DNA of 63,434 nucleotides, counting the filler, from Folioceros fuciformis (lineage: Eukaryota), in assembly GCA_049999805.1 (NCBI GenBank). It is 6 parts of 6 records of this genome, joined end to end, with 100 filler letters (N's around TTAATTAATTAA, not from the genome) between each part and the next. Parts side by side here need not be neighbours in the genome. Positions count along the whole stretch, not along the records: positions 46,541 to 55,041 come from JBNGIO010004568.1; 5 more parts are not named here. The stretch is one strand, 5' to 3'. This document shows, in pieces, positions 10,319 to 55,467 of this stretch. A program made the position numbers and the translations under genes. Below the pieces are notes generated by a model. It had not been told where the DNA came from, did no database searches, and saw nothing but the letters and a program-made list of their open reading frames with translations. Position 1 is the stretch's first letter. Every line of letters begins with the position of its first letter.

Positions 10319-10418
10319 NNNNNNNNNNNNNNNNNNNNNNNNNNNNNNNNNNNNNNNNNNNNTTAATTAATTAANNNNNNNNNNNNNNNNNNNNNNNNNN
10401 NNNNNNNNNNNNNNNNNN
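10319..10418. other. Artificial scaffold-joining linker (44N-TTAATTAATTAA-44N); also at 22595-22694, 36965-37064, 46441-46540, 55042-55141
   Basis: Identical 100-nt cassette five times; the palindromic 12-mer puts stops in all six frames. Confidence 0.95.
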
Positions 10419-22100: not shown

Positions 22101-22694
22101 CTATATTCAATAAGAACATCCATCCCATTATAGAAAACTGAAATAAGGTTGTAGCCAAATTTGCAGTCATCACTTTTCATTCCCAATTACATTTTGGAGA
22201 AAAGACAATTACGCAAAACCACCTTCAAAGAGTGAAAAGAGTTAGTGGCTAATGTGCTTTTTCTCATGATGTTATTTATCTCATTTCAAACCCAAATTGG
22301 TGAAACAAAGTTTGGATACATACCTGAAACCTTGGGAAAAAACCTTCAATTAAAAAGGTGCGAACATCTTCACATAGTAATCTCCGTCTTAGAAAGTTAT
22401 ATGGTTAATATCTTTTTCTTCTTGAGTGAGCCATTTTAGAGATTTGTCGATGCTCAAACCCGCTCTTTGATCGATTGTTGTTGGAATGAAAAACCCTGGT
22501 GTCTTCTTATCTTGTAGGGTTGCTTCACAACATAACTCGAACTCTAGCATAATATTCACCAAGTCTTGGGCCTCAAATCCAATAAAGTTCTTTGNNNNNN
22601 NNNNNNNNNNNNNNNNNNNNNNNNNNNNNNNNNNNNNNTTAATTAATTAANNNNNNNNNNNNNNNNNNNNNNNNNNNNNNNNNNNNNNNNNNNN

Positions 22695-31205: not shown

Positions 31206-34200
31206 TCACGTAAGTGCGCCTGCTTTCGTTACGCGTCTGTGCTGAGGAGTTCTCACTTCTTCTGTCAAAGTCGTCAAGATGGCATAAATATTCCTTCTCT
31301 CACAGTGTTCTCGGTCATGAGCCATGAAAGAATGCACGATATCATCCACTTCAATCCAAGTACGACCCGGTTCCTTGGAAAACCCGAATTTCGCCATGCT
31401 TTTCCTGACCTCAGCTTCCTCTTCCCACCTGCCACTGTCAGCATAGATGCTACACATGAGCACGTGAGCCGCCAGGTTCTGCGGATCCTTTCTCAAAATG
31501 GCCTCGAATGAGCGTCTGCCTAAACCTGCCTCACCATGAGTCCTGCAAGCTCGTAAAACTGACAACCACATCATGGCATCAGCTTCTGGCACGCTGAGCA
31601 TCAAGTTTTCTGCCTCTTGCAGATGCCCGGCACGGCAGAGGAGGTCCACAATGCAGGACTTGTGCTCGATTCCTGGGGTGATCCCGAAATCCTGCAACAT
31701 ACGTTGGAACAAGGCGAAGCCCTCGGCCAGTAGGCCGGCATGGCTGCAGGCCACCAGGACGTTCACAAAGGTGACATCGTTCGGCTTCACACCCTCCTGT
31801 TGCATTTGTTGCACATGTCCAAGAGCTTCATGCGCATGTCCATGCTGAGCACATGCGCCTATCATGGCATTCCAAGACACTACACTCCGCCGGACCAGTT
31901 TCGCAAATACTCTCTGGGCATCGTTGAAACAACCACATTTCGCATACATGTCAAGGAGCGTGCTTCCCACATACACGTCTGTTTCAAATCCCCTCTTGAT
32001 AATCCGGTCATGGATAGCCCGCCCCGCTGCCAAGGCTGCTATGCTGCTGCAGGCTTTCAGGATGCTCACAAACGTGACCTTGTCTGGTTCCACTTCGGCG
32101 TTCAGCATTTCCTGGAACAGATGAAGAGCCTCTTGGCCATGCCCATGTTGGGCATAGCCTCCAATCATGGCAGTCCACGAAACCAGACGCTTTTCCAGCA
32201 AACTGTCGAAAACTTCCTGGGCCACATCCAGCATTCCATATTTGGAGTACATGTCAACAAGAATGCTGCCCACGTTCCCGGATGATTCCAGGCCAGACTG
32301 TCTGATAAGGGTATGGACGTACTCAAGCTTCTCTCTGTTTGCAATGCCACCACATCCCTTGAGGAGATTTACGTACGTGATCTCATTTGGCTGGACAGCA
32401 TAACCAGACATCTGTGCAAAAAGGTCTAAAGCAGTCTTAATCTTCCCACCCTGAGCATATCCCCCAATTATTGTGTTCCACAGTACCACATCTGTTTTAC
32501 ATAACTTGTCAAACACGTTACGAGCCTCGGCCAGGCTTCCACACTTCGCATAAAGGTCAACGAGGCTAGTGCCGATGACAATGTCATTTTCCAGCCCAGC
32601 TCGTATGAGATGTGTGTGGATCTGCCTGCCCTGATCTAAGGCAGCTGTGGCCACACAAGACTTCAAAATGGTGGTGAAGGAGGTCATGCTTGGCTTCATA
32701 CCCTCCTCCTGCATTTGCTTCAAAAGCTGGAAGCCTCGTTCACCGTAACCATGCTCAAAATATCCAGCAAGCAGTGCTGTCCATGAAGATACATCTTTGA
32801 CAGGCATCTGCTCAAATGCATCCAATGCATCCTCTAGGCTGCCACATTTGGTGTACATACACACCAGCGCGTTCCCGACCGCCAAATCCGAAATGTACGT
32901 ACTCGCCCTGAGCTGGGCATGAACTTTCCTGCCCTCTTCAAGTGATGCGATGCTCCCACAGGTCTTCAGCATTATGATGAAAGTTATCTTAGTGGGTTGC
33001 ATACCCTCCTTCTGCATTCTTAGAAATAGTTGGATTGCTTCGTGGGCTTGTCCATGATGGGAATAACCCGCTAGCATCGCAGTCCAGGACACAACATTTT
33101 TGACTGGCAATATGTTGAAGACAGTCTCAGCTTCCTTCATGCTCCCACATTTTGCGTACATGTCAACAAGTGTGCTTCCGAGCACCACATCCAGTTCCAA
33201 TCCGTGCATCTTAAGCTGGGAGTGAATCTGTCTACCCTGCTGTACTGATGCCAAGCTGCCGCATGCCTTAAGCATGCTCACAAACGTGACTTTATTGGGC
33301 TCCACACCTTCCCCTCGCATACCTTCGAAGAGGTCGAGCGCTTCCCGACCATGCCCATGTCGGACATAGCCTGCAATTAAAGCAGTCCACGTCACAACAT
33401 TTCTGACCACCAAGTTGTCAAAAACAGCGTGCGCCTCATCCAAGCTCCCACATTTGGCATACATGTCAATAAGACTGCTTCCCACGATTACATCCAACTC
33501 TGCTCCAGTTTGAATCAACTGGGCATGAAGTTGTCTACCTTGATCCAGGGCTGCTATGCTGCCACAAGCTTTGAAGACACTGGCAAATATCGTATTGTTC
33601 GGGCCGATACCCTCGAATTGCATTCGGCTGAAGAGCTCCAGAGCTTCATGTCCACGCGCTTGCCTGGCATATCCACCTACCATAACTGCCCATGAGGCAG
33701 GAGACCTTTCCAGCAACTTGTCAAACACAAATCTAGCCTCATCAAGTGAGCCGCATTTGACGTACATGCTGACCAGAGTATTGCCAATCTCGACATCTGC
33801 TTCATGACCAGTTGCTCTGACTTGTGCGTGGATGGTGCTGCCCTCCTTCAGGGCTCCTAGGTTCGCACAAGCCTTGAGGACGGTAACATAAACCTGCCCG
33901 CGTACCTGCACGCCAGAGTCCAGCATCTCTTGATACAAACTGATGACCTTTCTGTCTTGTCCATGACTGGCATGAGCAGAAATAACTGCTTCCCAAATTT
34001 GCATATTCGTTTGACACGCTTGCAGGTAAGGATGGCTTTCATCCCCTCGCTTCCCCTGTGGAGCTATTTTTTTGCCAGCCGCCAGATACCTCTCCTTGAC
34101 AGAGCACAGAGAATCAATCACCGAGGGCACAGCTCGCTCATCGGTTAGTGCAACACTGCTGAATTCCCATGGAAATTGACAGCCCGCGGATAGCAGCCTG

Positions 34201-34301
34201 TCAGACAGCCCTCGTGTACGAACCCAAAATTTCCAGGTCTTGGAGCAAGTGCGTTGCAAGCATCTGACGCTGACACGAGGCCAGGAATGACCGCAAACCA
34301 T
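31206..34301 (-). CDS. PLS-class pentatricopeptide repeat protein, E1-E2-E+ (PG box, no catalytic DYW)
   Basis: 1031-aa ORF with more than 20 P-L-S motifs (e.g. VVTWTALIAGY, LVDMYAKCGS), E domains and KEPGRTWIEVDDIVHSF; ends before HxE. True start may involve upstream exons. Confidence 0.93.
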   Translation of the reverse strand: MVCGHSWPRVSVRCLQRTCSKTWKFWVRTRGLSDRLLSAGCQFPWEFSSVALTDERAVPSVIDSLCSVKERYLAAGKKIAPQGKRGDESHPYLQACQTNMQIWEAVISAHASHGQDRKVISLYQEMLDSGVQVRGQVYVTVLKACANLGALKEGSTIHAQVRATGHEADVEIGNTLVSMYVKCGSLDEARFVFDKLLERSPASWAVMVGGYARQARGHEALELFSRMQFEGIGPNNTIFASVFKACGSIAALDQGRQLHAQLIQTGAELDVIVGSSLIDMYAKCGSLDEAHAVFDNLVVRNVVTWTALIAGYVRHGHGREALDLFEGMRGEGVEPNKVTFVSMLKACGSLASVQQGRQIHSQLKMHGLELDVVLGSTLVDMYAKCGSMKEAETVFNILPVKNVVSWTAMLAGYSHHGQAHEAIQLFLRMQKEGMQPTKITFIIMLKTCGSIASLEEGRKVHAQLRASTYISDLAVGNALVCMYTKCGSLEDALDAFEQMPVKDVSSWTALLAGYFEHGYGERGFQLLKQMQEEGMKPSMTSFTTILKSCVATAALDQGRQIHTHLIRAGLENDIVIGTSLVDLYAKCGSLAEARNVFDKLCKTDVVLWNTIIGGYAQGGKIKTALDLFAQMSGYAVQPNEITYVNLLKGCGGIANREKLEYVHTLIRQSGLESSGNVGSILVDMYSKYGMLDVAQEVFDSLLEKRLVSWTAMIGGYAQHGHGQEALHLFQEMLNAEVEPDKVTFVSILKACSSIAALAAGRAIHDRIIKRGFETDVYVGSTLLDMYAKCGCFNDAQRVFAKLVRRSVVSWNAMIGACAQHGHAHEALGHVQQMQQEGVKPNDVTFVNVLVACSHAGLLAEGFALFQRMLQDFGITPGIEHKSCIVDLLCRAGHLQEAENLMLSVPEADAMMWLSVLRACRTHGEAGLGRRSFEAILRKDPQNLAAHVLMCSIYADSGRWEEEAEVRKSMAKFGFSKEPGRTWIEVDDIVHSFMAHDREHCERRNIYAILTTLTEEVRTPQHRRVTKAGALT

Positions 34302-35187: not shown

Positions 35188-36390
35188 TCATCCTACAAGC
35201 AGCTTGTTCTCCTCTAAAAATGAATAGGGTGGGACTTCAAGATTGTAAGGGGCAGGTCCCTTACGAACACGTCCAGATGTGTCATAGTGGGATCCGTGGC
35301 AGGGACAAAACCATCCATGATAGTCACCGGCGTTGGGCAGAGGCACACATCCAAGGTGCGTGCAGACACCGACCACCACCAACCATTCAGGCTTCTGCAC
35401 TCTCACTTCGTCAGGTTGAGGGTCGCGCAACTCGTTCAAATTGACATTTAAAGCAGCCTTGATGTCCTCTTCAGAGCGTCTTCGGATGAAGACCGGTTTT
35501 CCCCGCCACTTCACTGTGACCGTGGCACCTTGCTCAATGTTGGACAGATCAACCTCCAGAGAAGCCATGGCCAGGACATCCTTACTTGCCGACATGCTCA
35601 GGACCAGCTTCAAAACCAAAAGCCGAAGGGCGGAGGCATAGGCGAATCTCCCTCCGGTGAGAAGAAAGTAAGTGAAAGCCTTCTTGCTCGGGTCCCCTGG
35701 TGCAAACCTTTCATGCACGTGTTCGTCATACGTTATGGCATGAGTCGGGTTCTTCATGGCTACCACAGTTGGAGACAAGCCGTCTAGGTCACCCTTGGCA
35801 GTCAAGGCATCGGATGCAAACCCTGCCATCGAACCAAAACACTGTTACTCTGGGTGCACCAGCGAAACCACGACCCAGACAGCAACGAACACATGCTCCT
35901 TGCCATCCTCAAATACTGCAGCCTCCGCGGCACGGTCAACTCCAAGCTGGAGGGTTCGACAACAGTGAAGCCTTCACACGATCTCCTTCACCTTCCCCTG
36001 ACTTCACCTAGCTAGCACTGGACTCAAGCACACAACCCTCGCAACCTACGACATCGAGATACCATAACTTTGGTCACGACTACGCTACATTGGCTATGAG
36101 GAACGGACGAGATACGTTAGCGGTGCTCCATGCGGCAACAGGGAGGGCGAATCTCTCGACGAAAAGCTGTAACATGCATTCCTGAGAGACATACCTCGAG
36201 AGAATGAGGGATTCCAAGCAGCCAAAATGGCAGCCACGCCATCACTCCGGCCATCCTCGGAAACCCTGTCGTCCCACGATCCAATCCCTAGAGTGGGAAA
36301 CCGCGCTGCGCCCGACGAGGAGAGAGAGGGAGAGCAGGAGCCAGCCAAGCGCGCCAGCGACGGAAGCGAGCGCCCTACCCCCCTCATCAT
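35188..36390 (-). CDS. UCR1: Mitochondrial cytochrome bc1 Rieske iron-sulfur subunit, 276 aa, 2 coding exons
   Basis: Exons 36390-36195 and 35822-35188 join in phase 1. Rieske boxes CTHLGC and [18 protein letters not shown]; Arg/Ser-rich presequence [15 protein letters not shown]. Confidence 0.96.
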
Positions 36391-38236
36391 CCTGGACACA
36401 CCACCTGTGAGCAAGACAGATCACACAGCGTTACAAGAGTCCAGGGGCGCTCAGGTGAGAAATTCGGCAGCAAAAAGATTCGATGGAGGCAGGTACAAGA
36501 GGAGGTGCAAAGCGGGCGTTCAGATTTACCTCAGAAAGAACAAGAGCCTCCCTCCACGGAAAGCAACAAAGGGCTGTGACAATGGAATGCACGAATGCAC
36601 AGGTGCCCACGACCTGCGAAGAACCTGCGTGAAAGACGACGTAGCAGACGTTTGGTAGGGCTGCCTGTTAACCACGGTGCCTGGTTTGGTTTTAATCAAA
36701 ACCTCATTATGCATTTCGGATCGGGATGTATTTTTATTCCAGCCTAAGTTGGAGAACCCCAAACGAGCCCGCATTCCAGATCGATATCTGGAAGCTCGGC
36801 GAGGGCTGCAGAACTGAACTGCCCTTCCCCCCGGTAGTGGAGAATCAATCACATGAAAAAATACGATCATCTGGTTCCTTTTTTCTTTTATTTTCTTTTC
36901 TTTTCTTTTCTTTTCTTTTGTTTGTTAGTAAATAAAAGATCACTTTATTATAATTATTATTGTANNNNNNNNNNNNNNNNNNNNNNNNNNNNNNNNNNNN
37001 NNNNNNNNTTAATTAATTAANNNNNNNNNNNNNNNNNNNNNNNNNNNNNNNNNNNNNNNNNNNNGACAGACAGCGTCAATTGGTATATGGAGTCATACAG
37101 TAGTAGGCAGAAAGGTGGAAAGGACTGAAGTGGAAATTGATGCATCAGCTACTATATTTTGTGGAGAAGATGAATGCGCTGCGTCATGCATTCTTCTAAT
37201 AGAGAACTGCAACAACCACTTACGTAAGGTTGCTGGAGAGCTGTCTCATGGAGGCAAGCTATAAAAGACCAAGAGTTAGGACTCATTTCCCCGTCTAGCG
37301 GGCAGGCAAGCTTGTGTGCGCGCTGCAAGCCCTACCTTGCGGGATGTAGAAAGTTTAACTAAGTGAGCTTATGATTGCATCAAGAGCTCAAGCTCTTACC
37401 TTGAGGGGAGTGGAGAGCTTAGCTAGTGAGCTTATCATTGCATCGAGAGCTACGGAGAGCCTTATCTAGAGAGTTGTGGAGATTTAATATGTCATTATAA
37501 TATAATATAATATAATAATGGGCAGTAGTTAATTTGGTATGTATTGTATTATGGTTGGACTGAAGAACTTCTTTATGTGAATAAAGAGAGGCATGGACAA
37601 TTATGTCTCCATGTCTCTTGTGATAGCATCATCTTAATATCACATTGTGCTACCTAGTTGTTGGTCATCGTCCAAGATGTCTCCTATCTTCTCATGCTAG
37701 AAGTTATTTAAAGAAGAAGATAGTGTCACTAGTACAACGTAATGTGCCTTGTATGCAACATGCATCTCAAGCTTTTTGACTAATGCCTAAGCCCTAAAAG
37801 TCTATCGCATTATAGCAGTACTCACTTTATGTGGCCATTAAAAAGAAATTAAACACTTGTGTTGGCGCATTAAGAGAAGCTAGCAGAAAATATTGCGATG
37901 CACCTTACTTCATTGCTCCTAGCTCTCATGGCTTGCCTCCCTCCCTTCTTGCTACCACTCTAGTTGAGGGGACCTCATTTTGGAAAACACAATCTTAAAA
38001 TTCTATGATTGTGGACAAATTTTGAACATTATTGAAGTGTTGTGTGCTATCGCTTCTAACAAGACTTGTTTGTGTATTGTCCTTTTTGGAACATGACTAG
38101 CTTTTGTGTTTGTCGTTTGTGAAACATGACTAGCTTTTGTGTTTGTCCTTTGTGAAACATGACTAGCTTTTGCTTTTGTCCTTTGTGAAACATGACTTTC
38201 TTATGTGTGATACATCCCTTCTAAAATGACTTGCTT

Positions 38237-39420: not shown

Positions 39421-40824
39421 ATTTTCACAACTATAGGTTTCCAACCCTTAGTTTGGACCTCCGCGTGTATAAGCTCGAAATTATGTGGATGAGTAGTATT
39501 TTTCAACCCTCTCTACCTAACAACTCAAGCCAGTCAAGGGATTCTCAAAATGCCCATTATTTTCCAATCTTATAGATAAGAGTGCAAAGACAGCCGTAGA
39601 TTTCCAACCCTTAATTTGGACTTCGTACATGTACATGCATGAATTTCCAACCCTTCATACATGTACATGCATGAATTTCCAACCCTTAATTTAGACTTCG
39701 TACATGTACATGCATGAAGGCGCAGAGTTGTGTGGATGGCTAATTTGTTCCAACCCTCTCCACCTAACTACTTTTCACATGGTCGGGAAGATGATCTTGT
39801 TATTGGACCCATAACTTTAGTGTTGGGCACAGACTTGTGCTCACCACCGCATTGTCATGGGATTGTGAGAGTGACTTGTATCTTCTAACCTACTATATGT
39901 AAATATATTTTCATTCCATTCCTAAGTTTCCAGCCAGGACAATAAAGGTCCATCTCTAGTGTAGAATATGAAGATGCCAATCTTTTTCAACCTTGTTCAT
40001 AACATAGGATTTATACACACCAGTTACCTGACTATGATTTCAAGAGTTGGCTCACAGATATACTCAATATATACTACGTATGGTGTAGGCAGAATTTGGT
40101 GTAGCTCTGGCTGTGTGGGTATGTATAACGCAAAGGCCTTCCCAGCAGGACGGTGTGCAGTCGTTGATGGATGGCCCCAGCCCTGGCCGCGGCGAGAAAA
40201 GGAGCTGTTCTCCTCACGCGTGGCGGTTGGTGGCAGGTGGGTGTCTGGGCCTCAATCTCTCTGGGCTGGGCTGCATTTTTCACTTCGAATTTCCCCCATC
40301 TGCCGTGTCGGAAGGGTAAGCCATGAAGGTACCCGGCCTGACAGTTATCAGGAAAAGGAATCCCGTGGATACCCTGTCACCCAATCCCAGCCTTGCATGC
40401 AGGATGCCATCAACGGACAGCATAAGGTGCATTGGCTGGAAAAGACGAAAGGTAACATATCAGTGCTGCCCAATGCCCACCCGCGCAGCCCAGGGTGACG
40501 GAGAAGGCAGTAGGGAGTAGGGCCCCCCCCTCGCTCACCTGCTTTGGCCCGCCATTTTGCATGCCAGCCGTCCGGCAGTGGCCCGAGCAGAGAGTAGCTT
40601 GGGCCCTCAACCCGGTTCGCCCTCGGACCACCTCCCGGAGCGGAGCTCCGGCTCCTACCCTCCGTCGCGGCCCCGCTTTGGTAACAGTCGTCATTTCTCC
40701 TGTTTTCACTAGACAAGGTTCTTGCCTTCCTGCTCTCTTCACCGGACGAGCCGCTCTCTTCACCAGAGGAGACTCCCTGCCTGCCTTCCGTCTTCACCAG
40801 ACGAGCCTCCTTCCTTCCTGCCTC

Positions 40825-41146
40825 CTGCCATCACCACACGAGCTTGCTCCAGCTTCTGCTATTTCCACCACACCACACGAGCTTACTTCAGCCTCCTTTC
40901 TGTCTTCACCACACGCGCTTGCTTCAGCCTCCTGCTGTGTTCACCACACGAGCTTGCTCCAGCTCCTACTCTTTTCACCACTCGAGCTTGCTTCAGCCTC
41001 CTGCTCTTCTCCCAACACAAGCTTCCTTCAACTTCCTCCTGTTTTCACCGCGCGAGCTTCCTTCAGCCTCCTGCTGTTTTCACCATACGAGCTTGCTTCA
41101 GCTTCCTTCTGTCTTCTCCACGCGGGCTTGCTTCAGCCTCCTGCTT
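40825..41146. repeat. Diverged ~35-bp tandem repeat in the foldback spacer
   Basis: TTCACCACACGAGCTTGCTTCAGCCTCCTGCT units. Confidence 0.8.
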
Positions 41147-42099
41147 ATTGAGAAAGACACGCACCTGCCACTAACCGCCACGCGTGAGGAGAATAGCTCC
41201 TTTTCTAGCCGAGGGCCGAGGCTGGGGCCATCGATCAACGACAGCGCACCATCCTGCTAGGGAGGCCTTTGCATTATACATACACACAGCTAGAGCTACA
41301 CCAAATTCTGCCTACACCGTATGTAGTATATATTCAGTATATATGTGAGCCAATACTTGAAATCATAGTCGGGTCACTGGTGTGTATAGATCCCATGTTA
41401 TGAACAAGGATGAGAAAGATTGGCATCTTCACATTCTACACTAGAGATGGACCTTTATGTGCCCAAGCTGGAAACTTGGAATGGAATGAAAATGTATTTA
41501 CATATAGCAGGCTGGAAGAAATGAGTCATTTTCACAATCCCATGACAAGGTGGTGGTGACACAAGTGTGTGCGCACCACTAAAGTTATGGGTCGAATAAC
41601 AAGATCATCTTCCTCACTATGTGAAAAGTAGTTAGGTGGAGAGCGTTGGAACATACCAGCCATCCACTCAACCCCATGTCTATATGCATGTATGTGTACG
41701 AAGTCCAAATTAAGGGTTGGAAATCTAGAGTTGTCTTTGCACTCTTACCTCCAAGGTTGGAAAATAATTGTCATTTTAAGAAGCCCTTGACTGGCCTGAG
41801 TTGTTAGGTGGAGAGGGTTGAAAAATACTACTCATCCACACAATTTGCAGCTTATATGTGCGTGATGTCCAAACTAAGGGTTGGAAACCTACAGTTGTCT
41901 TTGCAACCGTGTAAAAATACCGTTATGTCCAGGGGGAAAATAACAATCATTTTGAGAATCTCTTGCCCCTTAGGTGGAGAGGGATGGAAAACCATTATGT
42001 TGAGGGTTGGAAAATAACAGCCATTGTACATCAGGACAAAACTAAGGGTTGGAAACCTCAAGTTGTCTTTGCAACTACATGGAAAAAACAGGTATGCCC

Positions 42100-45620: not shown

Positions 45621-47427
45621 TGATATACTAAATCTCCACAACTCGCTAGATAAGGCTTTCCATAGCTCTTATGATATGCTCACTAGCTAAGCTCTCCATA
45701 GCTCTTGATGCAATGATAAGCTCGGTGCCTAAGCTCTCCACTTCCCTCAAGGTAAGACCTATTGCTCTTGATTCAATCGTAAGTGAGTCAGTTCGTTAAA
45801 CTTTCCACATCCGTCAAGGTAGGGCNNNNNNNNNNNNNNNNNNNNNNNNNNNNNNNNNNNNNNNNNNNNNNNNNNNNNNNNNNNNNNNNNNNNNNNNNNN
45901 NNNNNNNNNNNNNNNNNNNNNNNNNCGTCAAGGTAGGGCTTGCAGCGCACACGAGCTTGCCTGCCCGCTAGACGAGGAAATGAGTCTACGCTGAAAATCC
46001 TAACTCTTGGTCTTTTATAGCTGGCCTCCATGAGACAGCTCCCCAGCAGTCCTATGTAAGTGGTTGTTGCAGTTTTCTATTAGAAGAATGCATTAAGCAG
46101 AGCATTCATCTTCTCCACAAAATACAGGAGCTGATACATCAATTTCCACTTCAGTCGTTTCCACCTTTCTGCCTACTACTGTATGACGCCAGATACCAAC
46201 TGACGCTGTCTGTCCTGGCGCGGGACCACCGACCGGGCCCGGGCCAGAGGTAGGGCTTGGCATTCCTCGTCCCTGTCATATGCCAGACCTGATTCATCTA
46301 TGTGCGGAGCCACGTTTCCTCATCCATGTCCAGCAAGTGGAGGATGTGGCAGATCTCCTGCAATTGAACGTGTTCAGGATGAAGTCAAAAACGTGTGGAG
46401 ATGCCTGAGTTGATCATGGCGGCACAAGTTGGCTAGCTGCNNNNNNNNNNNNNNNNNNNNNNNNNNNNNNNNNNNNNNNNNNNNTTAATTAATTAANNNN
46501 NNNNNNNNNNNNNNNNNNNNNNNNNNNNNNNNNNNNNNNNTACATGTGATAATATCGGTGGACCCCAAGCAATAGTATAGGGCAAGATGGCCGGCGGGGT
46601 GGTAATGTGGATCGAAATTCCGGGTCCAGCATCTCGCCAACGAGGAGGGTGCAGAAGGGGTAACACGAGCTCTCCTATTCTGAGGTGTGTTCCTCTAGAG
46701 AGGAGGAGGATGACACACTAGTGCGTCCATGGCGAGGTGCCACTCGTGGCAGACAACCGTCTCTCACTCACCATGAGGGTCTCATAGCAGTGTTAATCGG
46801 TGTATCTCTGAAACACTACCAAACCTTAACCCCTACAATGTACAGGTAGGTCCCTGGACATGGCTACGTTCAATACGGGAATTTATGGTAGATTCCACCG
46901 TATATTCTCATATATCAAAAAAAAAAAAGGCGTCTAAGGCGTGTTTGAATTGGTATTCCATACAAGGAGTCTGTACTTTCTTCAAAATAATAGGCCCATA
47001 GATTACTAGAGTATGGAATACCGATATGGTTAGCTAGTTTTCACACAAACTTTACCGCGGCATATATGGTTCAAACTTTTTGGACGTAATAGATGTGCTC
47101 GCTTCGGTCGTAGGGCACAAAGTAGGTGTCCTGATTAGGATACCTATTTTGTGATNNNNNNNNNNCGTAGGGCACAAAGTAGGTGTCCTGATTAGGATAC
47201 CTATTTTGTGATAATATTTTATCCCTCACGTTCGGATCAGTTACGTGTTATAATATTTGGGGACAGCAAGCAATGGTGCAGAGCAAGTGATAATATCCGA
47301 GGGACCCTAGGCAATGGTGCAGATCAAGTCATAATATCCCAGGGACCCCAAGCAATGGTGCAGAGCAAGACGGCTGGCGGGGTGGTGATGAAAACTACCT
47401 CTCGCTCGCCCTGAAGGTCTCAGGGCG

Positions 47428-49129: not shown

Positions 49130-52033
49130 TCAAGGCCGACCCTTACAACTGCAACAACCAGCTGCGAATCGATGCACACGGTACCCATCTCTCACCACAA
49201 TGTCTCTCTGTTCAAGCCTTGACATTATCTCCGTGGAACTGTGGCAGTCACTGCACATGCGCAGATTCTTAGTTACCACGAGTGGTGTCCCACTCGGGGT
49301 GTTCAAGAGACCAAACGCCAGAGCTAGCTTCTCAGCGTGCCCGCAAAGTAGATCTTCCTTTTCCATCTCAGACATCGGCTTCAACACCAACTTTGTGTGG
49401 GGAACGTGCCCTCCTTCCTGCTGCACACGTGCACTTGTTCTCTCTGCCTGAAGTGCGATATCCTCACTTCTTTCTCCCACCAAAAATCTGTGTACTTCCT
49501 TTTTCACCTCAATGGTTGCCACTGCAGGTTTCTTGTTAGCTCCTGCTATTTTCCTCTGCGTTTCAATCCTGTCTACATCGGTCCACATACCTGCGTCCGC
49601 ATAGGCATTGGCCATGAGCACATAGGCGGGCCCCTCCTGAGGGTCCAGCCTAACAATGCTTTCAAAACACCACCTTGCCCTGTCTATATCTCCATGGGTT
49701 TTGCAGGCATTCAACAAAGACCTCAATCCTACAACGTTACATTGGGAATCGGACGATAATAATCGCATCTTCTCTGCTAGCATCTTCTGTGCCTCATCTA
49801 AATGGCCTGCACGCCCAAGAAGATCAATCATGCAATTGTAATGCTCAGGAGTAGGTTTGATGCCGTGCTGCTCGGCCATGGACTCCAAGAGCTTGCGACC
49901 GTTGTGGACCAGTCCCCCATGACTGCATGCTACTAAAAGGCACGTAAAAGTAACATCATTCGGCTGAAAACCGGCAAGCAACATCTCCTCAAAGCAAGCT
50001 AGTGCCTTATGAGCTTCATCACAGGTACCATAGCCAGATATCAGGGCGGTCCATGTCACAACGTCTTTCGTCTTCATGCTGTCAAAAACCTGGCGTGCGT
50101 CTTCCACTTCCCCACATTTTCCATACATGTCCACCAAGCAGTTGCCCACCAATACGTTATCCAGCAGTCCTCTCTCCACAATCTCCGAGTGCAGCTGCCT
50201 TCCCTTCTGTAAGGCACCGGTGCTTGCACAGGCTTTCAGAAGGCAAGCGAAAGTAACAGGGTTGGGCAAAATGAGGCCTTCTTTTTTCATCTGTTCATAC
50301 ACTACAAACGCCTCTTGGCAGAGTCCTTGCTGTGCATACCCACATTTTGCATACATGTCTACCAGACAATTGCCCAAGACTACATCATCCAGCAATCCTC
50401 TTTCAGCAATCTGTGTGTGCAGCTGCCTGCCCTTTTCTATGGCGCCGGTGCTTGTACAGGCTTTCAAAAGGCAAGCAAAAGTGACACGGTCAGCTACAAC
50501 CAGGCCCTCCTCCTCCATTTGTCCATACACACCAAGCGCCTCATGGCCGAGGCCTTGCTGTGCATACCCAGCAATCAGGGAATTCCATGTCACCACATCC
50601 TTTCTGACCATGCTGTCAAACACCCGGCGCGCATCAGTCATTTCACTACATTTTGCATACATGTCCACGAGGCAGTTGCCCAACACTACGTTATCCAGCA
50701 TTCCTCTTTCTACAATGTGTGAGTGCAGCTGCCTGCCCTTCTGCACGGCACCAGTGCTTGCACACGCCTTCAGAAGGCAAGCAAAAGTAACCTGGTCAGC
50801 CACAATGAGGCCCTCCTGCTCCATTCGTCCATACAAAGCAAGCGCCTCTTGACCGAGTCCCTGCTGTACATACCCAGCAATCAGCGCTGTCCATGTCACC
50901 ACATCCTTCGTAGCCATGCTGTCAAAAACCTGGCGTGCATCTTTCATCCTTCCACATTTTGCATACATGTCCACCAGGCAGTTGCCAACAAACAAGTTAG
51001 AAGGAATCCCACTTCGCACCACATCGTGGTGAACTTGTCTGCCGGATTCAAAGTCGGCAGCAAACGCACAAGCCTGAAGGGCAGCTACAAAGACGTGACC
51101 ATTCGCCTTCACCCCGGACCTGCGCATCTCACGGTAGAGTTGTATGGCCTCCTTCGGTTTCCCATGCTTGGCATGAGCAGAGATTATGGAAAACCACATG
51201 AAGACATTTGGTTTGCCCACCCTGGTGAACACATCCATGGCCTCCTGCAGCCTACCCTCACATGCATACATGCGCAAGATATGGTTCCCCAAGAACGCAC
51301 TCGCCTCGTATCCAAGTTTGGCAGCGACATGATGAACACGACGCCCCACAACCAAATCCTTCTTAGCTGTGCACAGTTTCAGCACAGTATACAACACAGA
51401 GAGAGAAACAGCACCGTCCGTCTGCGCCAGGGATTCCAGTGCTCCCACGGCCTCCGAGAGCTTCCCCTGCTGACATAACGTGCTCACGGTAACAGCAGCA
51501 ACGACGCCCATACCCGATCCCGCACGTGGAAGTAATGGACTCCTTACACTGCTGAAGCTGGCTCCCAGTTCCGAACCTGCACACCGTCCAGGTTCCGCAT
51601 CACCTGGAGCGGCAACATCACCCATGTGCACATCCAAGGAATCCCGCAGCTCATCATCAACCCAAACTGGCTTTAACCTCCTATCTCCCCACAGCACCTC
51701 GCCGGACCCCTTCTGACCAGGGAAACGGGAACTCTTGTAATCTCGTCTCTTGTCCCACCAAAGAGCCGGGTCCAGAAAAAATTCTTCCCACAAGTGCTCC
51801 GGCTCCCGGCAACGACCATCCCTGGAAACCCCGTCCCCATCCACACTCTCTCTCAGATGCGGAAGCGCTACGCTCCTTACACCGCTGCACCCGGCCGAAT
51901 TGCTCGCCAGGCGCCGATTCCCCGCAGCAGCTCCTCGTAGAATCCCTCTACACACACAAATTCGTGGAGTCCCGCCTGAAATCCAACGAAGTGCCAAGAA
52001 AAGGAAAGAAGCTTCAGCCCCGGGTGCGGCCAT
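49130..52033 (-). CDS. PLS-class PPR-DYW:KP (GRP-type) RNA-editing factor with N-terminal PDF-like motif, 967 aa
   Basis: Single ORF: Arg/Ala/Ser-rich targeting-like N-terminus, W-rich motif at aa ~81-129, ~16 PLS motifs, E1/E2, KPAVA in place of the PG box, CGHAEK, LRMCSDCH, HRF..CSC, C-terminal GRP. Confidence 0.93.
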   Translation of the reverse strand: MAAPGAEASFLFLALRWISGGTPRICVCRGILRGAAAGNRRLASNSAGCSGVRSVALPHLRESVDGDGVSRDGRCREPEHLWEEFFLDPALWWDKRRDYKSSRFPGQKGSGEVLWGDRRLKPVWVDDELRDSLDVHMGDVAAPGDAEPGRCAGSELGASFSSVRSPLLPRAGSGMGVVAAVTVSTLCQQGKLSEAVGALESLAQTDGAVSLSVLYTVLKLCTAKKDLVVGRRVHHVAAKLGYEASAFLGNHILRMYACEGRLQEAMDVFTRVGKPNVFMWFSIISAHAKHGKPKEAIQLYREMRRSGVKANGHVFVAALQACAFAADFESGRQVHHDVVRSGIPSNLFVGNCLVDMYAKCGRMKDARQVFDSMATKDVVTWTALIAGYVQQGLGQEALALYGRMEQEGLIVADQVTFACLLKACASTGAVQKGRQLHSHIVERGMLDNVVLGNCLVDMYAKCSEMTDARRVFDSMVRKDVVTWNSLIAGYAQQGLGHEALGVYGQMEEEGLVVADRVTFACLLKACTSTGAIEKGRQLHTQIAERGLLDDVVLGNCLVDMYAKCGYAQQGLCQEAFVVYEQMKKEGLILPNPVTFACLLKACASTGALQKGRQLHSEIVERGLLDNVLVGNCLVDMYGKCGEVEDARQVFDSMKTKDVVTWTALISGYGTCDEAHKALACFEEMLLAGFQPNDVTFTCLLVACSHGGLVHNGRKLLESMAEQHGIKPTPEHYNCMIDLLGRAGHLDEAQKMLAEKMRLLSSDSQCNVVGLRSLLNACKTHGDIDRARWCFESIVRLDPQEGPAYVLMANAYADAGMWTDVDRIETQRKIAGANKKPAVATIEVKKEVHRFLVGERSEDIALQAERTSARVQQEGGHVPHTKLVLKPMSEMEKEDLLCGHAEKLALAFGLLNTPSGTPLVVTKNLRMCSDCHSSTEIMSRLEQRDIVVRDGYRVHRFAAGCCSCKGRP

Positions 52034-54763: not shown

Positions 54764-55467
54764 AAAATGTGGTCCCCTTCCCCTGGAGGACAGTCGTACA
54801 CACTGCGCTTGCGCTGCTGCTTGTGCTGAGCCTGTGGAAGAGGAAAGGGTTGTGCAAATGGAGTAGAGTCGAGCAAGAGGTTGTGCAAATGGAGTCGAGT
54901 CGAATGGAATCGAGTCGAGGAAAAGGTTGTGCAAATGGAGTGGAAGTTGGCGCACAAGACACAAGTGCAAAGCAAGGGAAAGGGAAAGGGCAAGTGAAAG
55001 GGCAAGGGAAAGGGCACGGCAAGCACAGCAAGTGCGCGGGGNNNNNNNNNNNNNNNNNNNNNNNNNNNNNNNNNNNNNNNNNNNNTTAATTAATTAANNN
55101 NNNNNNNNNNNNNNNNNNNNNNNNNNNNNNNNNNNNNNNNNCTTGCCTGCTAATCCACTCACGCTCTCACGATCCTAGCACGTCTCTAGAACTCTCATGC
55201 AAGATGTTGCACCGAAGCAAGTTCAAGAGGTCAAAGGACCACATATTTATCAAGAGGATCACCATGCACGATAGACCAGTGATCGAACACTAAGAAGCAG
55301 AAGGCTTGTCCTTGGGTATGGTATCGCAAATCTGTCTCGAACCTAAAAGACTTTGTTATTGGTAAGAAAGCCTGCACACAAAGAATAAGCTAGGCTATGT
55401 TAGGAACATAAGCCTAGCTTACTCTAGCACATATGAGATACTCTAGAAAAGAAAGTCCAAGTACACC

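Follow-up and report, generated by a model that had tools for sequence, protein, structure and literature searches.

A stretch of 63,434 nucleotides from Folioceros fuciformis (GenBank assembly GCA_049999805.1), referred to here as the window and composed of six joined parts of six records, carries on its minus strand a single open reading frame (ORF) at 49130..52033, within the part taken from JBNGIO010004568.1. The ORF codes for 967 amino acids (aa) and a stop. The protein, P0001, has the order presequence, PDF-like motif, linker, PLS-type PPR array, E motif and DYW:KP deaminase with a GRP terminus. By profile comparison the PDF-like motif is a relative of the motif of the organellar single-stranded DNA (ssDNA)-binding OSB proteins, and no other copy seen is as eroded. 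The fusion of such a motif to a PPR protein is neither a singleton nor specific for the KP type of deaminase. In our best reading, P0001 carries the accessory module of an old family, in a degenerate state, on an otherwise ordinary candidate U-to-C editor.

A PDF-like motif in front of a PPR editing factor

The motif occupies aa 77-130 (51644..51805, minus strand). A phmmer search of 1.84 billion cluster representatives, with only aa 60-150 as the query, yielded 94 proteins at E≤1e-3, 11 of them at E≤1e-10, and many were matched in several stretches. In thirty of the 94 a Pfam SSB domain (PF00436) preceded the matched motif, as in the OSB architecture, and 12 had PPR repeats. A profile built from 199 motif copies had the consensus ..LW..(F/L)F..P..WWDNR..K.NP..PDFKHK.TGEALW.....P.WV...L. 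As a control, a second profile was limited to 42 motif copies from 25 SSB-domain proteins, with PPR proteins and P0001 itself excluded. This OSB-only profile matched aa 77-130 with 41.7 bits (E 4e-15 for a single sequence, Z=1), while 2000 shuffles of the first 180 aa reached at most 4.8 bits. In the six-frame translation of the window, nothing besides aa 77-130 scored above 5.4 bits. Among the listed matches of the motif profile were angiosperm proteins named OSB1, OSB2, OSB3 and PTAC9 ('plastid transcriptionally active 9') by their sources. These scores identify the segment as truly homologous to the OSB PDF motif, a relationship that the original prediction had proposed from resemblance. 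An ESM Atlas search with aa 60-150 provided no lead, the best score (0.79) belonging to unnamed clusters.

A second motif copy indicated by tblastn at 40910-41032 (E 0.031) was rejected because it translates to a stop-ridden, low-complexity tandem repeat. Such repeat sequence extends on both strands over about 40700-41260, with long ORFs on the plus strand and the spurious weak motif match on the minus strand.

P0001 shares with the OSB proteins (OSB1-4 of Arabidopsis and relatives) a motif of about 55 residues, including the L-W..F..P..W-W-D.R..K start and the L-W......P.W-V...L end. In contrast to the OSB proteins, it has no SSB/OB fold, and its motif is single and N-terminal instead of C-terminal to an OB fold. 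The signature D and F are absent, two residues are deleted, and the motif is accompanied by an RNA-binding PPR array and by a deaminase. Within the first 178 aa no Pfam family was found at E≤10, in a search that included PF00436 and was also run with the whole protein. Membership in the OSB family was dropped: one PDF motif is present, but no SSB-like OB fold (Pfam, E≤10). In OSB proteins the PDF motif, a stretch of about 50 residues, is responsible for ssDNA binding according to the available portions of PMC6963530, PMC6451138 and PMC4166229. Three phmmer matches of 534-730 aa (P0002, P0006 and P0007) consisted of 7-9 tandem PDF motifs without an SSB or PPR family by Pfam; this architecture exceeds the one to five copies described for OSBs in the accessible part of the literature.

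Downstream of the motif follows a low-complexity linker (aa 131-183; 51485..51643, minus strand), which is longer than in a lycophyte homolog, as seen from a 27-column gap opposite to it in the alignment. The PLS-type PPR array covers about aa 184-779 (49697..51484, minus strand) and was recognized by Pfam as PPR_2 (3.7e-80), PPR (2.6e-79) and PPR_1 (4.9e-55). The E motif (aa 780-842; 49508..49696, minus strand) matched PF20431 with 7.3e-14, and the DYW_deaminase family PF14432 matched aa 875-965 with 5.1e-33. Tandem PPR motifs followed by an E motif and a DYW deaminase are the layout of a PLS-class PPR editing factor.

The deaminase domain comprises 133 aa from K835 to the C-terminus (49133..49531, minus strand). 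Its N-terminal box, K-K-P-A-V-A-T-I-E-V (aa 834-843), has Lys-Pro in the place of Pro-Gly. The zinc site is composed of HAE (aa 899-901), KNLRMC (aa 922-927) and CSDCH (aa 927-931). The protein ends with CSCKGRP, and its S-S-T-E-I-M-S aligned to T-A-T-K-F-I-S of a PG domain, with Glu for Lys. As far as the available texts go, DYW:KP domains are characterized by the KP pair, Ala or Cys after the His, a conserved Lys88 and Met for V95 (PMC9478123, PMC11845758), together with a length of 132-133 aa (PMC11845758); a hornwort GRP subgroup has a terminal G-R-P and a Glu at the place of K103 (PMC9478123). P0001 shares with the hornwort factors of this subgroup, the basis of the designer proteins KP2 and KP3, the KP box, HAE, the Lys88 in KNLRMC and the Met before CxxC. 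Also shared are the Glu at the K103 place, the terminal GRP and the 133-aa domain. We thus consider P0001 a candidate U-to-C editor of the hornwort type, GRP subgroup. The accessible text of PMC9478123 and PMC11845758 reports U-to-C activity for designer consensus proteins only, so that the editing direction of P0001 would follow from its likeness to them. The sources on hornwort DYW:KP factors, these two among them, make no mention of an N-terminal PDF-like module in the portions available, which did not include the primary descriptions.

The tripartite structure of PDF-like motif, PLS-PPR array and DYW:KP domain put forward in the original prediction was recovered with Pfam, phmmer, the OSB-only profile and the sequence features of the deaminase. 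The peptide quoted there as being in frame with the array and the deaminase is aa 81-129, exactly 51647-51793, and the frame is continuous.

Within the PPR array an in-frame deletion of 26 aa became apparent. The spacing of the repeat units was 102, 102 and then 76 aa, the last at a junction at aa 565/566, where MYAKCG meets YAQQG (50324..50356, minus strand). In the region of aa 560-570 the first helix of an S-type motif is joined to a P-type motif, and the alignment with P0157, a PDF-PPR-DYW:PG protein of Diphasiastrum, has its gap on the side of P0001. The deletion could derive from unequal recombination between near-identical repeats or from a collapsed assembly.

A second PLS-class PPR ORF is present in the window at 31206-34301 (minus strand, 1031 aa). 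It has a PG-type box, E-P-G-R-T-W-I-E-V, and ends about 50 aa past this box before any HxE or CxxC site, thus its DYW domain is truncated. The PDF motif is absent from this ORF in a tblastn search of the window. Another ORF at 35188-35829 (minus strand, 213 aa) contains the motifs C-T-H-L-G-C and C-P-C-H-G-S, which we take to be the Rieske iron-sulfur signature, probably of a nuclear gene, or of one exon, encoding the mitochondrial Rieske protein. Five blocks of 100 bases (10319-10418, 22595-22694, 36965-37064, 46441-46540 and 55042-55141), each with two runs of 44 N and 12 bases between them, are the filler joins of the window and not genome sequence. Ordinary N gap runs of 10 and 100 bases are also present.

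Erosion of the motif core

The core of the motif is the stretch P-G-Q-K-G-S-G (aa 105-111; 51701..51721, minus strand), which replaces the canonical P-D-F-K-H-K-x-T-G. The alignments agree on P-G, a gap of two residues and Q-K-G-S-G: the Pro is kept, the Asp is changed to Gly, the Phe is lost and two residues are deleted. P0001 thus lacks the Pro-Asp-Phe signature itself, while the motif as a whole, over some 50-60 residues, is recognized by the motif profile. The eroded core had been noticed in the original prediction and is now specified. Contigs of three sequencing runs (two studies, one organism; one run may be the source sample) covered at least 51461-51937 with 0 differences, hence the shortened core does not stem from a local assembly error. 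All runs consisted of contigs; one labelled as possible RNA also covered the flanks of the gene, and the summed depth, which for contigs does not rank parts of a gene, differed between the two halves of the motif.

How unusual this core is becomes visible from the 199-copy profile. The P-D-F triplet is present in 188 of the 199 copies, and no residues of the motif are more conserved than D and F (96-98 % of the copies). Among the matches listed, 127 of 135 unique PPR-linked copies have P-D-F, and P0001 is the only one missing both the D and the F. The best copy of P0001 had the weakest profile E-value of 95 proteins, 4e-17, the others having 2e-20 or less. In a FastTree phylogeny of 357 motif copies, the terminal branch of P0001 had a length of 1.06 against a median of 0.18, a six-fold difference. 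Outside of the core the motif is well preserved: 14 of the 18 columns conserved at 70 % or more are kept, with only K28 and the core D-F-K missing. All tryptophans of the motif are retained, and the frame is unbroken.

Models of the P0001 motif and of a canonical single motif (P0024) were calculated by AlphaFold2 with the same 39 sequences, a shallow alignment. P0024 was predicted with a predicted local distance difference test score (pLDDT) of 90-94 across the motif, as a helix, three short strands (W34-W35-D36, F49-K50-H51 and A57-L58) and a long helix. The P0001 motif was predicted with a mean pLDDT of 64.9, 55-57 at the core, as helices only and without strands. Since F-K-H forms the central strand of the canonical model, the residues lost in P0001 sit in the predicted central strand. 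For the region of aa 75-135, for which the original prediction had proposed profile and structural comparison, the profile match was significant, whereas the model was of low confidence and strandless in comparison to P0024. The canonical model found nothing in the PDB with Foldseek at E≤1e-3 (best 1.8). A comparison with 48,161 chains by VIA-align reached a best Z of 4.2 without a recognizable solved relative, which does not in itself establish a novel fold. From these model comparisons, the fold of the ssDNA-binding PDF motif appears to be structurally uncharacterised.

The damaged core favours a module that is weakened or a relict and contributes little to P0001, and we regard this as slightly the better bet. 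The loss of D and F by substitution and the deletion of two residues would remove the middle strand of the predicted three-stranded sheet. A different explanation is a remodelling of the core to P-G-Q-K-G-S-G in the hornwort lineage, with the module functional in a changed form, for instance with RNA or a protein partner preferred in place of ssDNA. Such a module would still help the editor to bind its substrate or an editosome component. The retention of 14 of 18 conserved columns, both helices and every tryptophan is in line with remodelling, as are the restriction of the lesion to one short stretch and the 136 codons that stay open ahead of the next Met. With its DYW:KP catalytic residues intact, the gene overall does not give the impression of decay. 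Remodelling is nevertheless rather unlikely in view of the near-invariance of D and F, the position of F-K-H in the central strand of the canonical model and the long branch of P0001. No second sequence with this core was found either, in libraries that apparently do not include hornwort proteomes.

The position of the motif close to the N-terminus raised another explanation, according to which the mature protein would lack the segment. No start precedes the ATG at 52033 after the upstream stop, and from there the frame is open through 136 codons to the next Met, Met137. This residue and Met175, both in frame, are located between the PDF-like motif and the first PPR. With a start at either of them, or with removal of the segment by splicing or together with the transit peptide, the motif would be a fossil in the 5' leader, and a damaged core would be expected for such a fossil. 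We consider this quite improbable: the first available start opens the long frame, and a leader would be unlikely to retain 14 of 18 conserved residues for long. In addition, homologs with a full N-terminus share the layout, with the motif after a presequence of similar length, at aa 77 in P0075 and at aa 86 in P0064 (50-90 aa overall). The presequence of P0001 (aa 1-76; 51806..52033, minus strand) contains 11 Arg and Lys against 5 Asp and Glu, with a single acidic residue ahead of aa 62. This composition suggests that the 967-aa protein is targeted to an organelle.

Distribution and inheritance of PDF-PPR proteins

A search with a profile of 13 motifs retrieved 344 proteins at E≤1e-3; the counts that follow are from the best 120 of the 344. 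Twelve of the 13 motifs in the profile were PPR-linked, thus the ranking is biased towards such proteins. Pfam PPR families were present in 96 of the 120 proteins, the other 24 being OSB-type or unassigned. The 96 PPR proteins belonged to Diphasiastrum complanatum (80), Sphagnum spp. (10), Adiantum capillus-veneris (1) and unnamed sources (5). Among the matches listed, the named PDF-PPR proteins were annotated as 'hypothetical protein' or similar. One, two or three motif copies were present in 66, 27 and 7 of the listed PPR-linked proteins, respectively, always preceding the array. Of the first 94 phmmer matches, the 12 PPR proteins had an intact P-D-F-K-H-K at their N-termini, and two of them possessed complete canonical DYW domains. 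With 12 of 94 representatives and 96 of the best 120 matches being PPR proteins, the fusion is not the singleton that the original prediction had considered as evidence against its proposal. The combination is common in clubmoss and peat-moss proteins and therefore not special to the gene of P0001.

Close relatives of P0001 were sought by word-seeded protein searches with aa 1-180 against proteins of near lengths and with aa 50-210 against shorter proteins. These remained empty at E≤1e-3 and E≤1e-2, in libraries to which hornwort proteomes apparently do not belong.

Besides P0001, 34 PDF-bearing DYW proteins were among the matches retrieved. All 34 had a PG-like box and a DYW or NYW end, so that P0001 was the sole KP protein. 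An HSE motif was found in 33 of them, while P0149 gave no regular-expression match to the active site. Among these matches, from libraries in which hornwort proteomes are apparently absent, an enrichment of the fusion with DYW:KP over DYW:PG was not observed, and a KP-specific association was dropped as an explanation.

This distribution bears on the role that had been proposed at the outset, a PDF-like module that links a reverse editor to nucleoids, ssDNA or R-loops and thereby couples U-to-C editing to transcription. The properties of the OSB proteins would fit such a tether: their PDF motifs bind ssDNA, OSB1 and OSB2 prefer ssDNA over double-stranded DNA or RNA (PMC4166229), and OSB1 limits R-loops in Arabidopsis mitochondria (PMC8330923), as far as the accessible text of these reports goes. 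About a hundred PPR proteins have retained the module, which is hence presumably active in that family. Against a tether for reverse editing stand the PG type of all 34 other DYW proteins and the state of the P0001 copy, whose signature residues are missing and whose predicted fold is poor. The proposal, made by analogy to OSB proteins, is thus improbable for P0001.

The inheritance of the fusion was assessed by comparison with the PDF-PLS-PPR-(E)-DYW:PG proteins of Diphasiastrum complanatum, Sphagnum spp. and Adiantum capillus-veneris (e.g., P0157, P0075 and P0064), which have the same domain order as P0001. P0001 and P0157 are collinear over aa 79-963, with 43 % identity in 922 columns, and the two-residue gap of the core and the 26-residue gap of the PPR array are both on the side of P0001. 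The motif of P0001 has the PPR-linked residue at four of the five columns that separate PPR-linked from SSB-linked motifs, and it belongs to the same PPR-linked subtype (E-F-F-x-D-P) as the motifs of the DYW:PG proteins. The differences are in the deaminase, in the core and in the array: the others have a PG deaminase and a nearly always intact P-D-F, whereas P0001 has a KP/GRP deaminase, an eroded core and the 26-aa deletion. In the tree of 357 motif copies, five changes suffice to explain the PPR and SSB labels, with most forks unresolved and the long branch of P0001 not firmly placed. The simplest reading of these comparisons is an old PDF-PPR-DYW lineage common to seedless land plants, of which P0001 would be a divergent member.

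Putative role of the module and implications for editing factors

PPR arrays read the RNA upstream of a target, and the DYW domain acts on the base. P0001 would accordingly be a nuclear-encoded, organelle-targeted PLS-class PPR RNA-editing factor of the DYW:KP (GRP) type, with the target chosen by the PPR array and the catalysis performed by the DYW:KP domain. Rather than a new acquisition of this gene, the PDF segment would be the N-terminal module shared by an old family, in which presequence, PDF (one to three copies), PLS-PPR, E and DYW follow one another. In this order the module would be placed on the 5' side of the PPR-bound RNA. Conservation in the PDF-PPR family is too good for an idle module. 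Because PDF motifs bind ssDNA in OSB proteins, the module is most likely a sequence-unspecific binder of single-stranded nucleic acid in the family, or an anchor, e.g., to the ssDNA of nucleoids.

Several observations weigh against a weakened or relict module in P0001 and the family role outlined here. The conserved columns, the tryptophans and the open frame could reflect selection on a modified, still working module. The low pLDDT may be an effect of a divergent query in a shallow alignment and not of a lost fold, and Met137 and Met175 offer alternative starts for a protein without aa 1-136. The preference of OSB1 and OSB2 for ssDNA over RNA, as given in the accessible part of PMC4166229, fits a DNA tether better than an RNA clamp. 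The function of the PDF-PPR proteins at the family level would itself be transferred by analogy, and the eroded core may be either private to P0001 or fixed in a hornwort clade.

In the literature, no publication linking the PDF motif or domain to PPR or DYW proteins was found in a search that did not extend to supplements, the 2006 OSB or the 2020 PPR-KP primary papers. Likewise, none was found that joins 'organellar single-stranded DNA' with 'DYW domain'. Architectures of this kind may be included in the supplementary protein tables that accompany PMC13386178 and PMC13393729. A 2026 survey of the OSB family, in which the OB fold and the PDF motif were both required, mentions PPR 0 times, and a 2026 kingdom-wide survey of domain fusions in editing factors mentions OSB or PDF 0 times. 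The PDF-PPR architecture therefore appears to be undescribed yet not rare, and the present locus contributes a KP/GRP representative whose core is broken.

For P0001 the preferred reading, a degenerate module on an otherwise ordinary editor, tempers expectations: a real motif is present, but in a more degraded state than in any other copy seen and with no particular connection to reverse editing. With regard to the family, a tentative and somewhat doubtful idea is that PDF-PLS-PPR-DYW proteins constitute an old, undescribed class of editing factors, present as a hornwort-type gene and in Sphagnum, a lycophyte and a fern, in which an OSB-type ssDNA-binding module is wired to a sequence-specific RNA editor. 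If so, editing would be placed at the nucleoid or the transcription bubble, or the PPR tract would be given an additional, unspecific hold on nucleic acid. As judged from the collinear KP/GRP copy, U-to-C editors would then have originated within the PDF-PPR-DYW class or recombined with it, and the remodelled core of this copy could serve as a natural experiment on the function of the P-D-F residues. The PDF motif and the PPR-DYW:KP editors are each known; their modules occur together in some hundred public PPR proteins, whose annotation is just 'hypothetical'. Should the PDF module bind single-stranded nucleic acid when joined to PPRs, it would be an unrecognised accessory domain of plant editing factors, relevant to how editors find their substrates where transcription is nucleoid-associated and to synthetic PPR editor design.

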